Below are positions 32,218 to 38,213 of a DNA stretch of 64,000 nt, piece after piece. The DNA lies in assembly GCA_963710755.1 (NCBI GenBank), contig CAVQBK010000002.1, forward strand, positions 32,001 to 96,000, in the 5' to 3' direction. The stretch is from an uncultured bacterium. Lineage in GTDB: Bacteria > Oederibacteriota > JAAXVQ01 > JAUVAV01. A program made the position numbers and the translations under genes. Numbering within the stretch: position 1 is the first letter of the stretch; the number at the start of each line of letters is the position of its first letter. A model generated the notes under the pieces. It saw nothing but the letters and a program-made list of their open reading frames with translations, searched no databases and was not told where the DNA came from.

Positions 32218-32706
32218 TTACATCGCTAAAAATTGTTTAACTTGACGTAGGGCCTGTTTGCGGTAGGGTTTCAGGGGACTATAAGGACACAATTCGATTT
32301 TTTCATGATTGGCCAGTAGCACGTAGAGATTGTAACTTTTCCGGCGAATACCCTGCCAGCGATCAAAGACAGCAGGCAGCGCCGCCATGCTCACCATGAC
32401 AATTTGGTTCAAACTCGCTTCCCGGCACTGCACCGGACCAAAAGGACCCTGGTAACGCCAAAGTCGTAACTGATTGGACTTTTTATTGAATTCCACCCGA
32501 TCCGGCCTGCCGCCCAACCAAGTCCCCAAAAGACCGGCTACCAGAAAAAAAAAATATAACACACCATGAGCCAGAGGCTCATCGCTTAGCAATACGGCCA
32601 CCGTGCCCAGGGCACCCAACATGGTCAGAATAAACACAGACATCCGGAATAGACTGCGTGGTTCCTCCAAAATCAGAATCTGGTCACTCATGTTCTTCAA
32701 GGTCAT
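32218..32706 (-). CDS. hypothetical 2-TM membrane protein
   Basis: Two hydrophobic helices followed by a soluble domain; start uncertain. Confidence 0.6.
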   Translation of the reverse strand: MTLKNMSDQILILEEPRSLFRMSVFILTMLGALGTVAVLLSDEPLAHGVLYFFFLVAGLLGTWLGGRPDRVEFNKKSNQLRLWRYQGPFGPVQCREASLNQIVMVSMAALPAVFDRWQGIRRKSYNLYVLLANHEKIELCPYSPLKPYRKQALRQVKQFLAM

Positions 32707-33003
32707 TGCTTTACTCTCTGTTCCCAATCGCGCCGGGATTTTTCTTGCTTTTATTACCGGCATAAACAGGTTTTTTATAAACCCTTGAAGCACAGAGCTA
32801 TTGGCGATCGCGGCCCAAAACCATTGTTTAGCATGGAAAGATCAAGACCTAAAGGACTGACCATTGACCTTAGCCGGCACATACAAGTAGTTGAGACCAA
32901 GCGAATGGCCAATAGGAATGATTAAAATACCCTGCCATGAATTGCGGGATTAATTGGGAATGGATTAAGCGGGTGCAAACCAAAGGGGGGGGTCTTCCCT
33001 GAT

Positions 33004-33447
33004 TCAGGGTTTGGTGGAGAGCTTGGCGTTGATAAAATCCTTATGGTCGATCCACATTAGGCCTGCAATTTTGCGGATGGCTTCCAGCTCTTGATGGGAA
33101 AGTTCATGATCCGCCCAAGCCAAGGCAAACAAATCCTGGATTATTTTTACCCGTTCCGAATAGTCGCAGGTTTGATTGATCTCGCGAGTAAAACTTTCCC
33201 AATCCAGTCCTTCACTCAAGACCTGGCGTACACTTTTAAATATTTCATCCTGTTCTTCTTTGGTTTTATAACCGCGCCGTTGCAGAATAGCACGCTTGGC
33301 GTCTTCCTCAGCCGGCGTGACCTTGCCATCGGCCTTGGCCACGATGGACAGCAGGGCTCCCAGCACGAGTCGCGCTGTTAAGTCCGGTGTGGGCGTGGTC
33401 TGGGGCTTGGCGGTAATCAGAGTTGACAATCGGTCCAAAATTCCCAT
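33004..33447 (-). CDS. TerB family protein
   Basis: VAKADGKVTPAEE and LAWADHELSHQE repeats. Confidence 0.88.
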   Translation of the reverse strand: MGILDRLSTLITAKPQTTPTPDLTARLVLGALLSIVAKADGKVTPAEEDAKRAILQRRGYKTKEEQDEIFKSVRQVLSEGLDWESFTREINQTCDYSERVKIIQDLFALAWADHELSHQELEAIRKIAGLMWIDHKDFINAKLSTKP

Positions 33448-33462
33448 GTTGTTATCCTTAAT

Positions 33463-34173
33463 TCATAGATTGCGCAGTCCCACCTTTTGGACATAGGGTT
33501 CCGCCAGAGCCTTGAACCGCTCCAAAACCTCTCGTGGATAAGGCGGCCGTTGGCCCAATTCAGAATCATCCAAATGGGTGGGCACAAATTGCTGCAGGTA
33601 ATAAGCCGGTGCTCCGGCAATAAGTTTGGCAATGGTTAAAATATCCTCTTCCCTAACCAGCCCGGGCACACAGGTGGTGCGGAATTCATGGGGAATGGAA
33701 CTGGCCTTTAGAAGCCCTATGGACGCCAATAGACGTTGTTCCGCATCCTTCAGGGTATTAAGTTCGGAGGCGTAGCGATGAGGCGCCATTTTCATATCCA
33801 CGGCCACATAATCCACCAATCCTTCACCCAACACAGCGGCCAGGATATTGGTGCGCAGCCCATTGGTATCCAACTTAATGGCCATGTCCATGAGACGTAA
33901 ATGCCTGAGCAGATGGGTCAACTGAGGGTGAAAAGTGGGCTCGCCGCCGGTCACCACCACCGCGTCAAGTAGTTTTTTCCTGCGATTCAAGGCTTCAATT
34001 AAATCTTCCAAGGATAAATCCTGCAGCCCCGACGGTTGTTCCAGCAGCAGGTGATTATGGCAGAAACTGCAGCGCATGTTGCAGCCCCCCAGAAAAATAA
34101 CCGCCGCTACTTTGCCGGGATAATCAATAAGAGAAGTGCCGATAAATCCTTTGATGCCCTGAATCTTGTTCAT
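33463..34173 (-). CDS. nrdG: anaerobic RNR activating radical-SAM enzyme
   Basis: SLIDYPG, GCNMRCSFCHN (CxxxCxxC), TGGEPT, KLDTNG, EFRTT; in the nrdD operon. Confidence 0.93.
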   Translation of the reverse strand: MNKIQGIKGFIGTSLIDYPGKVAAVIFLGGCNMRCSFCHNHLLLEQPSGLQDLSLEDLIEALNRRKKLLDAVVVTGGEPTFHPQLTHLLRHLRLMDMAIKLDTNGLRTNILAAVLGEGLVDYVAVDMKMAPHRYASELNTLKDAEQRLLASIGLLKASSIPHEFRTTCVPGLVREEDILTIAKLIAGAPAYYLQQFVPTHLDDSELGQRPPYPREVLERFKALAEPYVQKVGLRNL

Positions 34174-34176
34174 GCC

Positions 34177-34314
34177 TTAATTTTCCTTTGCCACCACAAA
34201 TTCTTTGCGGTCTTTAAATTCTTCCCGTTTACCCTTATTCCATTGCTGAACAGGTCTGAAATAACCAACAACCCGTGAATAAACTTCGGTTTTTTCCATG
34301 CATTTTTTTGCCAT
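34177..34314 (-). CDS. 45-aa stand-alone NrdD glycyl-radical peptide
   Basis: Hand translation MAKKCMEKTEVYSRVVGYFRPVQQWNKGKREEFKDRKEFVVAKEN*; TAATG overlap with the nrdD stop; stop 3 bp before nrdG; below the ORF-track size cutoff. Confidence 0.92.
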   Translation of the reverse strand: MAKKCMEKTEVYSRVVGYFRPVQQWNKGKREEFKDRKEFVVAKEN

Positions 34315-36416
34315 TATACCATGACCCCCTTCTCCTGCTGATGATTTTTAATGGGCATCGATTCCACCACCACACCGGATTGTTCCTGGGAATGGTGGCG
34401 GCTCTCGCCGGATTCCTGGAAGGCTGCTTCTTCTTTATCGTAAGGACAAACGTGATGCTCCCCGGCAATATACCCATGGACCGGACAAATGGAGAAGGTA
34501 GGCGTTATAGTGAAATAAGGCAGATGATAGTTTTCCGCGATACGGCGTACCAAGGCCTTGCAGCTCTCCGGATCATCGATACTCTCCCCCAGAAAGATAT
34601 GCAGTACCGTGCCGCCCGTATATTTGGTTTGCAGGGGATCCTGATGTTCCAGGGCTTCAAAGACATCCTCTGTGGCGCCCACCGGCAACTGGGTGGAATT
34701 GGTGTAATAAGGCTCTTCCTGGCCGGAAGCAATGATATCCGGAAATTCCTGACGATCCAGACGGGCAAAACGATAAGAGGTGCCTTCCCCGGGGGTGGCT
34801 TCCAAGTTGAAAAAATCGCCTTCTTGCTCCTGATATTCCTGAATACGTTGACGCATGATGTTCAGGGTTTTTTCCGCCAAAGCCTTGCCCTCAGGGGACA
34901 TGATGTCCTTGCCCAGTAAATTCAGACCGGCTTCATGCATGCCGTTGAGCCCGATGGTGGAAAAATGATTGGCCCAATACCTTCCGGTACGCTGTTTGAC
35001 CGCAGAGAGATAATATTTGGAATAGGGATAAAGGTTGTTCTCCGTATAGCGTTCCAGAATCTTCCGCTTGATTTGCAAGCTTTCCTTGGCAATATCCATA
35101 AGGTTGAGCACACGGGTATGAAATTCCTCTTCCGTGGACGAAAGATAAGCAGCTCTGACCAGATTGATGGTTACCACACCCAAGCTTCCGGTTAAAGGAT
35201 TGGCGCCAAAGAGCCCGCCGCCCCGTTTACGCAATTCGCGGTTATCCAGTCTCAAGCGGCAGCACATAGACCGGGCGTCTTCTGGATCCATGTCACTGTT
35301 GATGAAGTTGGCAAAATAGGGAATACCGTATTTGGCGGTCATGCCCATTATTTCTTTCATAATAGGCGCTTCCCAGTTGAAATCAGCGGAGAGGTTGTAG
35401 GTAGGAATGGGGAAGGTGAAAATCCGGCCCTGGGCATCGCCCTTCATCATAACCTCGCAAAAAGCACGGTTAATCATGTCCATTTCCTTTTGGAAATCCC
35501 CGTAGGTGTCCTCTTGCATGTCGCCGCCAATAATGACGGGTTCATTTTTCATATTCTTGGGAACTTGTAAATCAAGGGTGATATTGGTAAAGGGCGTTTG
35601 GAAACCCACACGGGTGGGTACATTGACATTAAAAATGAATTCCTGCATGCTCTGGACCACATCATCGTAACTGAGACCGTCCTTGGCAACAAAAGGTGCC
35701 AAATAGGTATCAAAATTGGAAAAAGCCTGAGCGCCGGCAGCCTCACCCTGTAGGGTGAAAAAGAAATTACAAATCTGCCCCAGGACACTGCGGAAATGCT
35801 TGGGCGGTTTGCTCTCAGTTTTGCCGTAAGCGCCGCGCAGGCCTTTTAAAAGCAGGTCCCTCAGATCCCAACCGCAACAATAACCTGACAACGAACCTAA
35901 ATCATGAATATGAATATCACCATTGAGGTGGGCATTGCGGACTTTTTCCGAGTAGACTTCTTCCAGCCAATATTGGGAAACCAGAATGGCCGTAATGTGG
36001 TTGTTCATTCCCTGCAGGGAATAGCTCATGTTGGAATTTTCTTTGATACGCCAGTCATTTTTACCCAGATAATTGTCGATCAATTCGTTGGCTGAAGAAA
36101 AGAGCTCCTGGGTTTGACGCAGTTTGCTGTGCTGAGCCCGGTAAAGGATATAGGCCTTGGAGACATCCTGATAGCCTTCATCCATCAAGGTGGTTTCCAC
36201 GATATCCTGAACATTTTCAACCGTGGGAATATGGTCTTGCTTGTAAACCGCTTTTAGAATATTGCAGACCCGGCGCGTTACAGCTTGGGCCTGTTCCAGG
36301 CGATGCTTGCCCACGGCAGCCATGGCCCGGTAAACAGCATTAACTATCTTCTGTTCGTCAAAATGAACAAGCCGTCCGTCACGTTTTCTAATCTGAGTGA
36401 TATTCTGCTGCTGCAT
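34314..36416 (-). CDS. nrdD: class III ribonucleoside-triphosphate reductase catalytic subunit (ATP cone; lacks the C-terminal glycyl loop)
   Basis: IRKRDG ATP cone, HIHDL, GYCCGW, AGAQ, TFPIPT, RSMCCRL, EATPGEG, YTGGTV, TPTFSICPVHGY...CPYD. Confidence 0.95.
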   Translation of the reverse strand: MQQQNITQIRKRDGRLVHFDEQKIVNAVYRAMAAVGKHRLEQAQAVTRRVCNILKAVYKQDHIPTVENVQDIVETTLMDEGYQDVSKAYILYRAQHSKLRQTQELFSSANELIDNYLGKNDWRIKENSNMSYSLQGMNNHITAILVSQYWLEEVYSEKVRNAHLNGDIHIHDLGSLSGYCCGWDLRDLLLKGLRGAYGKTESKPPKHFRSVLGQICNFFFTLQGEAAGAQAFSNFDTYLAPFVAKDGLSYDDVVQSMQEFIFNVNVPTRVGFQTPFTNITLDLQVPKNMKNEPVIIGGDMQEDTYGDFQKEMDMINRAFCEVMMKGDAQGRIFTFPIPTYNLSADFNWEAPIMKEIMGMTAKYGIPYFANFINSDMDPEDARSMCCRLRLDNRELRKRGGGLFGANPLTGSLGVVTINLVRAAYLSSTEEEFHTRVLNLMDIAKESLQIKRKILERYTENNLYPYSKYYLSAVKQRTGRYWANHFSTIGLNGMHEAGLNLLGKDIMSPEGKALAEKTLNIMRQRIQEYQEQEGDFFNLEATPGEGTSYRFARLDRQEFPDIIASGQEEPYYTNSTQLPVGATEDVFEALEHQDPLQTKYTGGTVLHIFLGESIDDPESCKALVRRIAENYHLPYFTITPTFSICPVHGYIAGEHHVCPYDKEEAAFQESGESRHHSQEQSGVVVESMPIKNHQQEKGVMV

Positions 36417-36510
36417 CAAAAAACGCCCCCCCACCCTCAAATTGTAGCCTTTACAGTTGTTTTCATGCGATTGCTTTCGTTTTTTTAATTGCAGTTGGTA
36501 AAATAGGAAA

Positions 36511-36559
36511 TCACAATATATTGTGGAATCGCTCCGGCCTTCGCTACTATATATTTGAT
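36511..36559. promoter_or_regulatory. tandem NrdR boxes
   Basis: Perfect palindrome CACAATATATTGTG (36512-36525) and a second box TCAAATATATAGTA (minus strand, 36545-36558), 33 bp apart, upstream of nrdD. Confidence 0.85.
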
Positions 36560-36574
36560 ATTTTGGGTTGTCAA
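36546..36574 (-). promoter_or_regulatory. sigma70 promoter of the nrdD operon
   Basis: TTGACA (36574-36569)-17 bp-TATAGT (36551-36546); the -10 lies inside the second NrdR box. Confidence 0.8.
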
Positions 36575-36791
36575 CGAGTTTTTTAGCCTTATATTTTAAG
36601 GCTAATTCTTGACCCCCTGCAGGTAAGGCTTGTGGGCACAGGATTTTTTAAAGGTCCCTTGTATTATTTTAAAAAGACAACCGTGTAAAATAATTTGCCC
36701 TGGCCTTGTGAGTGTTTAGTTCCTGGCGTGGCAGCAGGTCCTTTTGATCTCAACAAAATATTCCACCTTCTATCACCCCAAAGCATCCCCC

Positions 36792-38213
36792 TTACTTGGG
36801 GGATGCTTTGGGGGTCCTCTTCTTCACACTTTTTTTAGTGGATTTTGACCTTGCAGTCTTGCTGGATTTTTTGGAGACTTTGGGGGTTACTTTTTTTCGG
36901 GCCGAACGTTTGGTGCTCACCTTTTTAGTGACTTTACCGGAACCAACGTTGGCGGTAGAGGCTGTCTTATCAAGCGTCGTTACTTTTTCCAGCGACCCTT
37001 GTTCCTGCTCTTTAACCGGCGGCATTGGCCGTTGCCCCAAAGACGGTTTACGGTCTTTTTGAAAAACAGTGTTCCCCGGCCGTTCAATAATCATGAGCCA
37101 TAGGGCGCCGCTTCCAAAAATCACCACCACCAAATTGATAAGGCTGTTTAGCAAGGGAATAAACCCAATCAAGGTTAATAAGGCCAGCCCAATGGCCATA
37201 CCCAGCATGAACTTGCCCGGTGTGCGATCACTGGCCTTAAAGATCTTCTGCCCCAACCATAAGGCAATACCCAGTTTGGAAAATACCAATAAGACCAGAT
37301 AAAAGAAGACGAGCACCAAAGCCAGCGGAATGCCGACAACCGTAATGAGAAGAATGATGGTTAAAACAGGCAACCCTAAAATTACAGCCAAGCCCCATCC
37401 CAAGGTGGGTAAAGGCTTGGTATTAATCAGATCGGTGTAGCGTTGACAGGCGCGCGGCCACAAGGCAATAACCAGGAGACCCACTGCCAGCAAGGCCAAA
37501 AACACGGTCAAGTTATAGACCAATGTAAATAGAAACCACCAATGACCAAGGTTAAAAAGCCAATTTTGAGAAGGCGCCGGTGGCAGGGATTTTTTCCAGG
37601 TGATAGTGCCTTTCACTTGTTGACTGAGCTTCGGCCCCAGCCGTTCGGGGGTACTGTAAGTTAAATGCCCGTAAATGCTGGCATTAGGTCCCAGGACCAG
37701 AGATTTGGTCTTGATGGTCACATCATTCATAAGGGTACCGTTCAAAATGATCTTTTCGCTGTTAATGGTAACCGGTCCCTGGATAACACCGTCAAGGATC
37801 GTGCTGCCGGCCAAAATAAAGGCATCACTGCCCACGGTGGCATCGCGGTGCAGCCTCAGTTCATTGCCGATAAACAGGAGGCTCCCAGAAACTTTAGCCG
37901 CCACCATGGCTTTGTTACCCATCAGGCGGAGATCATCGCCCACCTCACCCTTAATTTCTCCGTCGCTGACCAGCAGATTTAAATCCTGACCCACCACGCC
38001 CCAAAAAAAAGCGGTTCTGGCCACGGCCCATACATCCTGCAGGGCGCTGCCGTAAAAATTGATCAACTCTCCGGCCATGTACAAATCTTCGGTAATGATG
38101 TCTTGGCGTTCCACAATGATCTTTTCACCGTTTTTAAAGATCATGGCTCGATTGACCGCTGGCAGACACAGGCCAAAGACCAGCAATAACAGGATGGTCA
38201 TCGTTTTTTTCAT
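36792..38213 (-). CDS. membrane protein with bactofilin-like beta-helical repeats, about 5 TM helices and a K/S/R-rich tail
   Basis: Signal peptide; repeats EDLYMAG/QDVWAVA/DDLRLMG/SDAFILAG; TM block; KVTKKVSTKRSARKK tail. Confidence 0.75.
   Translation of the reverse strand: MKKTMTILLLLVFGLCLPAVNRAMIFKNGEKIIVERQDIITEDLYMAGELINFYGSALQDVWAVARTAFFWGVVGQDLNLLVSDGEIKGEVGDDLRLMGNKAMVAAKVSGSLLFIGNELRLHRDATVGSDAFILAGSTILDGVIQGPVTINSEKIILNGTLMNDVTIKTKSLVLGPNASIYGHLTYSTPERLGPKLSQQVKGTITWKKSLPPAPSQNWLFNLGHWWFLFTLVYNLTVFLALLAVGLLVIALWPRACQRYTDLINTKPLPTLGWGLAVILGLPVLTIILLITVVGIPLALVLVFFYLVLLVFSKLGIALWLGQKIFKASDRTPGKFMLGMAIGLALLTLIGFIPLLNSLINLVVVIFGSGALWLMIIERPGNTVFQKDRKPSLGQRPMPPVKEQEQGSLEKVTTLDKTASTANVGSGKVTKKVSTKRSARKKVTPKVSKKSSKTARSKSTKKSVKKRTPKASPK

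Follow-up and report, generated by a model that had tools for sequence, protein, structure and literature searches.

The 64,000-nucleotide (nt) stretch analysed here (the window; contig CAVQBK010000002.1, positions 32,001 to 96,000) comes from an uncultured bacterium of the phylum Oederibacteriota (assembly GCA_963710755.1). It encodes a class III ribonucleotide reductase (RNR), NrdD, whose glycyl radical loop is the product of a gene of its own. Three closely packed genes encode in turn a truncated NrdD (the core), a 45-residue peptide bearing the loop, and the activase NrdG. The core and the peptide probably form an obligate two-chain class III RNR, a reading that claims no adaptive advantage over the fused form. 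All features of the locus lie on the minus strand and are given in window positions; L and G numbers are our designations of loci and genomes.

Division of NrdD between two genes

The nrdD core gene (34314..36416) has its probable start at the ATG at 36416, giving 700 residues; the earliest start, a TTG at 36440, would give 708, and residues are numbered below from the TTG. The TAA stop codon of the core (34314-34316) has one base in common with the ATG (34312-34314) of the peptide gene (34177..34314) in a TAATG overlap. A purine-rich ribosome-binding stretch for the peptide gene lies within the 3′ end of the core gene (34325..34336). The stop codon of the peptide is followed after a 3-base spacer by nrdG (33463..34173), the product of which scored 190.5 bits against the NCBIfam model TIGR02495 (NrdG2; cut-off 131.15) and also matched Radical_SAM in Pfam, as befits a radical S-adenosylmethionine activase.

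Together the two products cover the Pfam family NRDD (PF13597; cut-off 26.2 bits). The core matched profile positions 1-526 of 562 (608.7 bits) and the peptide positions 526-562 (44.5 bits), which was its only Pfam match; the core alone scored 1040.7 bits against NF006126 in NCBIfam (cut-off 548). This division bears out the proposal of an earlier note, made from the sequence of the window, that NrdD is split and that the glycyl radical loop resides on the peptide. The core carries an ATP-cone (PF03477; residues 16-105, 36126..36395; 77.5 bits, cut-off 25.8) and a finger-loop motif of the double-cysteine type, MCCR (residues 392-395, 35256..35267), one of the motif classes (MGCR, MCCR) distinguished in PMC9669993. 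A profile score above the cut-off, a finger-loop cysteine motif and an NrdG partner, all features of a class III RNR, were therefore present.

The remaining two features were found only when the chains were taken as a pair. The zinc region of the core (34437..34487) reads C652-x2-H655-x9-C665-P-Y-D668 (34485-87, 34476-78, 34446-48 and 34437-39, respectively), with D668 where fused relatives carry the fourth cysteine, so that the core chain holds only C652, H655 and C665 of a four-ligand ribbon. Nor does the core have a C-terminal RVxGY loop; it ends in a fast-evolving, low-complexity tail of 40 residues (34317..34436), 16-50% identical to relatives as against 76-94% for the core proper. The peptide provides a cysteine, Cys5 (34300-34302), the proposed fourth zinc ligand, and an RVVGY loop with the radical site Gly17 (34264-34266). 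Both residues were invariant across 21 peptides, and the C-terminal tail after the loop was conserved. Since the genome contained no intact NrdD elsewhere, only the truncated core and the peptide, the peptide is the sole source of the glycine loop. The description of the locus in the earlier note held in every detail, including the stop 12 codons upstream in the peptide frame, which leaves 11 open codons ahead of the ATG.

Conservation, selection and independent translation signals

NrdD was found in 40 of 99 genomes surveyed from the same phylum; 37 had a truncated core, two a fused gene and one a small match alone. The profile match of the truncated cores stopped at position 525-536, and a separate small peptide match was present in all 37 genomes. 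The peptide was 82-100% identical across the family and order, and this conservation excludes a chance origin of its open reading frame (ORF). Indeed, the peptide is under strong purifying selection: across 31 codons in 14 genomes (91 pairs), the mean proportions of synonymous (pS) and non-synonymous (pN) differences were 0.751 and 0.037, respectively (pN/pS 0.05), and a pair from the same genus had a pS of 0.545 with a pN of 0.

These observations leave almost nothing to recommend an explanation of the split by misassembly or by decay of the gene. The presence of another RNR in the genome and the metagenome-type assembly from which the window derives are compatible with it; against it stand the recurrence of the same split wherever a genome of the phylum has a truncated core (37/37), its occurrence in dozens of genomes from other phyla, and the pN/pS of the peptide. 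In addition, a separately assembled Logan contig from a soil metagenome run, which may derive from the window's own sample, spans 34092-34385 with 0 differences and 0 gaps, so that a second assembly agrees at the junction. The earlier note had judged a simple sequencing error unlikely and had proposed a check of 34300-34460; no indel was seen across the junction, and close relatives are split as well. A second explanation, in which one fused chain is made after all by recoding (frameshifting or read-through) or by protein trans-splicing, is very improbable. In some relatives both ORFs share a frame with one stop between them, and many relatives in the NrdD subfamily carry inteins, with lengths up to 1879 residues and two to four matched stretches. 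Against recoding, all three frame offsets between core and peptide (0, 1 and 2) were seen, intergenic gaps ranged from 11 to 527 nt with no conserved frame relation, and in genome G007 a whole gene intervenes between the ORFs. Against trans-splicing, no intein family was detected by Pfam in either chain, some relatives have core tails of no more than 1-6 residues, and just 4 residues precede the peptide cysteine. An Rfam scan of 32500-37500 found no intron, riboswitch or other RNA family, returning only a chance snoRNA match (E 0.14).

The peptide genes of relatives also carry translation signals of their own. A Shine-Dalgarno core with an ATG was found for 94 of 96, a count that the procedure favours by taking the best candidate start. 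The intervening gene of G007 (L014:1693-2133) encodes a cysteine-rich, membrane-like protein of 146 residues with a weak match, under the cut-off, to DUF4395.

Co-variation of the zinc ligands

Intact relatives read C-x2-H-G-Y-x7-C-P-x-C-G-x-x-T-E-V-Y-S-R-x-x-G-Y, as the earlier note had stated for enzymes of this type, and all 17 fused loci had CPxC with the spacing C-x3-T-E-V-Y-S-R. Split loci resolve the fourth ligand in several ways. In type A, to which the window belongs, the core has no fourth cysteine, its position being occupied by D, H, M, Q, T, A, E, N, L, V or G, and the peptide begins M-x-x-K-C with its cysteine at the canonical C-x3-T spacing. This cysteine, at -4, was present in 69/69 distinct loci and in 3/3 more, hence in all 72 type A pairs, in agreement with the statement of the earlier note that the cysteine missing from the core reappears on the peptide at the same spacing.

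In type B the core keeps CPxC and continues into a charged, heptad-like tail; the peptide is without the cysteine and has a matching N-terminal extension of helical appearance. The sequences suggest that a two-helix zipper may take the place of the shared zinc site in this type. The peptide cysteine was absent in 4/4 and 8/8 pairs and in 16/16 with both parts detected among 18 loci. Type B was seen in other families of the window's phylum (L017-L020, L106-L123), with core tails of about 20 residues and peptides of 62-70 residues. Type C cores carry an invariant CPxxH, and their peptides, too, are without the cysteine (7/7 loci); these loci came from metagenomes (L129-L133, L137, L205), and their cores end in CP-x-x-H-[TS] with a conserved L..[FW]G tail. 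A fourth layout was represented by one locus (L190), where a mini-protein bearing a complete zinc ribbon and a glycine loop of its own is encoded 378 nt downstream of a truncated CPxC core.

Altogether, the peptide cysteine was absent in 35/35 pairs whose core keeps CPxC or has CPxxH. The earlier note had proposed such a comparison of CPxC loss with the peptide cysteine. Because the cysteine is found exactly where the core lacks a fourth ligand, the co-variation is the best available support for a two-chain zinc site, and Cys5 of the peptide most likely closes that site in trans.

Predicted assembly and proposed mechanism

A complex of core, peptide and zinc, a check proposed in the earlier note, was predicted with a score of 0.80; the best of three controls scored 0.01. 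In the benchmark for this mark, 58/80 solved complexes and 2/110 mismatched pairs reach it. The prediction runs agreed in at least 86% of contacts, and the predicted local distance difference test value of the partner was at least 74. Residues 7-13 of the peptide were predicted to pair with core residues 648-653 and 660-665, both strands bearing zinc ligands. Predicted contacts with the core were made by peptide residues 3-20, 25-33 and 35-42; the interface ended at core residue 671, and the low-complexity core tail past this residue lay outside it, with no predicted contact to the peptide. Zinc distances were not part of the output. Since structures of fused relatives are known and the two chains correspond to the parts of one divided gene, the pass may reflect likeness to fused structures, and the prediction should be read as showing such likeness and not as independent proof of binding. 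The order encoded by the peptide does match that of the fused glycyl radical domain, in which the zinc site is followed by a buried glycine loop and a surface tail (PMC11226230, PMC4493059).

We infer the following course of assembly and activation. The core chain would comprise the ATP-cone, three zinc ligands out of four and a ten-stranded barrel that carries the MCCR finger loop, but no glycyl radical loop; the 45-residue peptide would be translated from its own start codon. The peptide would dock on the zinc ribbon of the core by strand pairing through its residues 7-13, and Cys5 would most likely complete the zinc site. The RVVG17Y loop would then enter the barrel while the peptide tail lies over the surface. 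NrdG would place the radical on Gly17, and catalysis would proceed from there as in single-chain NrdD.

Distribution of split and fused NrdD

Relatives of the peptide numbered 358 at the 90% cluster level, with sizes of 24-79 residues; where their sources gave names, these were anaerobic RNR or hypothetical protein. Among species-representative genomes, a scan yielded 80 loci, the best of 576 confirmed matches to an alignment of cysteine-bearing peptides. Together with 18 loci from the phylum, 98 loci were classed, 17 as fused and 76 as split (73 without three duplicates), with five left unassigned. The fused loci belonged to archaea, Dehalococcoidia, Atribacterota, Nitrospirae, WOR-3 and Patescibacteria. 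Split loci were found in FCPU426, in many genera of Desulfuromonadales, including Geothermobacter hydrogeniphilus, in Lentisphaerota, including Victivallis, and in Verrucomicrobiota and Planctomycetota.

Among the 150 nearest representatives of the core at the 50% cluster level, 57 were fused, 62 ended directly after the zinc region and 31 were left unassigned; about half of the representatives in this NrdD subfamily thus have no glycine loop. The 62 that ended after the zinc region, of 119 classifiable, lacked the fourth cysteine in 22 cases and kept it in 40. The split occurs widely and in at least three or four architectures, which goes beyond what the earlier note knew.

Several further features of the relatives were recorded. 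Many of the nearest core relatives (P0121-P0270) are 1000-1880 residues long with two to four matched stretches, which fits one to three inteins per gene. Nearly all Desulfuromonadales cores (L024-L076) end 3-10 residues past the third cysteine, in Ala-Ala, which could, as a mere guess, be a degron-like C-terminus. Two fused NrdD genes (L165 and L188) have variant loop motifs. A protein search with the peptide against 50,697 phage records gave no support for phage-borne peptides: four records were returned, and the one inspected, from an Oceanotoga phage, has a fused NrdD.

Origins of the split

A FastTree phylogeny was built from 81 cores over 420 columns, with the zinc region left out. Type A fell into two clades: Lentisphaerota, Verrucomicrobiota and Planctomycetota made up one (12 rows, support 100), and the other, of 51 rows (support 94), unites Desulfuromonadales with the families of the window. 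The four type B rows (support 100) adjoined fused NrdD of Patescibacteria (support 89). According to this tree, with support values that are weak evidence, the type A enzyme of the window is nearer to that of Desulfuromonadales than to the type B enzymes found in other families of its own phylum, and at least three changes of state are needed.

Independent support for more than one fission event comes from the variety of break points and of solutions for the fourth ligand. In some fused genes (L153, L156, L162, L164) a long insert separates CPxC from the loop, which indicates that this linker tolerates change. An origin of the break from an intein was also considered and dropped: no long insert between the third cysteine and the glycine loop was found among the 150 nearest core representatives, and these gave no evidence for it.

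Alternative readings of the zinc site and of the split

Several points weigh against a two-chain enzyme with a shared zinc site. The co-variation rests on few independent events, as the tree needs only three changes. The first sample was picked by likeness to cysteine-bearing peptides and is biased accordingly, most of the genomes examined are metagenome bins, and loci were classed by regular expressions that left 5/98 in the genome set and 4/80 in the metagenome set unassigned. Three split loci from metagenomes (L173, L181 and L204) had no peptide gene pattern within 2452, 853 and 1961 nt downstream, respectively. Outside the window, the genome has another homologue of the RNR large subunit (a PF02867 match in a 757-residue frame; G000:C3:1135024-1136436), and NrdD is thus not demonstrably essential; an argument from essentiality of the split NrdD was dropped on this account. 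Finally, the histidine of a GEH motif in the core, H662, could close the zinc site in cis. The site would then be completed within the core, for example by C652, H655, H662 and C665, the peptide would be held by strand pairing and loop insertion, and Cys5 would be otherwise used or idle. A histidine at this position in 55/55 type A cores, together with the closure of the site in cis by CPxC or CPxxH in other split lineages, speaks for such an arrangement. The same histidine is, however, present in 50/72 fused and 26/30 type B cores, which already have four other ligands, and as it is so frequent in fused forms it does not discriminate. A core-only site would also leave without explanation a peptide cysteine that is invariant where the core has no fourth ligand (72/72), absent where it has one (35/35), and kept at the canonical C-x3-T spacing. 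Closure within the core is accordingly improbable.

A different alternative concerns why the enzyme is split. The arrangement could have been selected because the part that O2 cleaves is a cheap, replaceable peptide, such that fresh peptide would restore activity without a new 700-residue core. There is precedent for this: the glycine is the point at which O2 breaks glycyl radical enzymes, and the small protein GrcA rescues pyruvate formate-lyase (PFL) (PMC13450708, PMC12288474). It is also in keeping with a Lentisphaeria chromosome in which the peptide gene stands in three identical tandem copies ahead of nrdG and after the core gene, with two orphan peptide genes away from any core gene, with an intact NrdD and an adjoining 86-residue protein of zinc ribbon and glycine loop in Patescibacteria, a GrcA-like layout, and with the emergence of the split more than once in differing architectures. 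On the other hand, nearly all split loci have one copy of the peptide gene (L068, G079 and G098 had more, and the extra matches in G091 look like assembly duplicates), so that gene dosage is generally not in its favour; it is not obvious that a peptide bridged through zinc and inserted into the barrel would come off; and neutral, recurrent fission at a permissive linker fits the data equally. Selection for replaceability is therefore unlikely. The earlier note had proposed an obligate and exchangeable radical cartridge that resembles GrcA. Of this, the obligate nature stands, as the genome has no intact enzyme; a purpose in exchange and O2 repair stays a conjecture, and the peptide is mostly single-copy. 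The likeness to GrcA extends to a small, stand-alone glycine-loop protein and fails on two counts: this genome offers no intact enzyme that could be rescued, and the peptide falls outside the Gly_radical family.

A broader reading, which we advance tentatively and consider doubtful, is that class III RNRs possess detachable radical modules. The zinc-clipped 45-residue peptide would be a consumable: NrdG would activate it, O2 would destroy it, and a new one would take its place on the lasting core. The patescibacterial proteins and the tandem and orphan genes would be instances of the same principle. As part of this reading, fission would have proceeded through duplication of the radical domain as a spare part and subsequent loss of the built-in copy.

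Tandem, orphan and related small genes

The tandem genes in the Lentisphaeria chromosome, which was assembled from long reads (L068:2495-3032), encode three identical 41-residue peptides with a period of 206 nt; the core gene of this locus is in three frame pieces, possibly through long-read indel errors. The orphan peptide genes (L124:999-1187, L125:985-1131) lie amid small unannotated ORFs, away from any nrdD core. One of them encodes a type A peptide in a genome with a type B core, where bin contamination or a mobile element is possible.

In Patescibacteria (L064:2702-2962; also L055 and L077), an ORF of 86 residues is located between intact nrdD and nrdG. The protein has its own CxxC...CxxC ribbon, a loop of the TEVYSRVVGY type and a C-terminal Cys-Cys, and matched NRDD profile positions 510-562 (49.6 bits). 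It was matched by 604 clusters of 47-151 residues (E <= 0.001), and the 120 matches listed align over 90-100% of its length. It has the look of a spare part that would serve class III RNR as GrcA serves PFL.

Promoter and neighbouring genes

Upstream of nrdD, a sigma-70-like promoter with 11/12 matches (TTGACA-17-TATAGT; 36546..36574) was the best in the region. It overlaps two AT-rich partial palindromes (36511..36560), read by eye, which lie about 32-33 bp apart and resemble NrdR boxes; the second (36511-36526) includes a perfect 14-base palindrome. NrdR is encoded by the window's genome, and a two-box layout for NrdR is described in PMC13584703. No terminator-like sites were found on the minus strand between the nrdD core gene, the peptide gene and nrdG. 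We propose that these genes are transcribed together as an operon, from a promoter that carries the NrdR-like boxes.

Directly 3′ of nrdG is an ORF of the TerB family (33004-33447, minus strand; 92.4 bits), and a similar ORF occupies the same place in G007. The genome also contains one PFL-like glycyl radical enzyme, outside the window (752-residue frame; G000:C2:203993-204313).

Relation to known systems and significance

The nearest known counterpart is single-chain NrdD, as in phage T4, Thermotoga maritima and Prevotella copri, which belongs to the same families (NF006126, PF13597), adjoins NrdG, and shares the ATP-cone, the finger loop and a zinc ribbon followed by an RVxGY loop and a surface tail. 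In the T. maritima chain, the part up to the end of the CPVC knuckle (residue 608) aligned with the core and the part from residue 612 onward with the peptide; the zinc motif of that chain is described in PMC4493059. Unlike single-chain NrdD, the chain is here broken within the second zinc knuckle (C-P-x / C), which places the radical glycine and one ligand on a separate product, and the core of the window continues after the break into a non-conserved tail of 40 residues.

GrcA (YfiD) is likewise a small, stand-alone glycine-loop protein that works with a large barrel enzyme and an activase, and is much larger than the 45-residue peptide. GrcA, however, is an optional spare part of an intact enzyme, whereas the peptide of the window is obligate because no intact enzyme is present. 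The peptide also belongs to the NrdD family (PF13597) and not to Gly_radical (PF01228), and, unlike GrcA, it probably shares a zinc site with its partner. The patescibacterial protein has the same glycine loop and tail and occupies the same place between nrdD and nrdG, but has a complete CxxC...CxxC ribbon of its own and coexists with a fused NrdD.

A structural zinc ligated by residues of two polypeptides occurs in the CD4/Lck clasp; those proteins are unrelated, and the site proposed here would be of a 3+1 kind that arises from fission of an ordinary zinc ribbon. Among other RNRs, the class II enzyme of Pseudomonas aeruginosa has its catalytic subunit in two consecutive ORFs, NrdJa and NrdJb, which must assemble (PMC4520616), and split phage nrd genes are interrupted by introns, inteins or homing endonucleases (PMC3653736). 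These systems differ from the present one in class and break point, and neither is known to place the radical residue on a mini-peptide.

Full-text searches of the literature found no description of an NrdD whose glycyl loop sits on a peptide of its own, although supplements or RNRdb lists may flag such sequences. In the RNR papers examined, the word 'split' referred to phylogenetic splits, splittings in electron paramagnetic resonance spectra, class II NrdJa/b, and phage intron or intein cases. The enzyme of the window is a real, widespread and apparently undescribed variant of class III RNR. Inventories of RNRs in anaerobes may be wrong as a result, since cores of this kind can be taken for truncated genes or pseudogenes and the peptide is easily missed.

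GrcA aside, we know of no glycyl radical enzyme with the radical site on a separate chain. Here the radical-bearing chain is an obligate gene product of 45 residues, a new kind of radical subunit. As a natural two-piece enzyme, it allows the radical domain to be labelled, mutated or supplied separately, which is of use for a question common to all glycyl radical enzymes, namely by what route the activase and the buried glycine come together. In a 2026 review, formate lyases are given as the only class of glycyl radical enzyme with known spare-part proteins (PMC13450708); the split NrdD and the patescibacterial mini-protein bring that statement into question.

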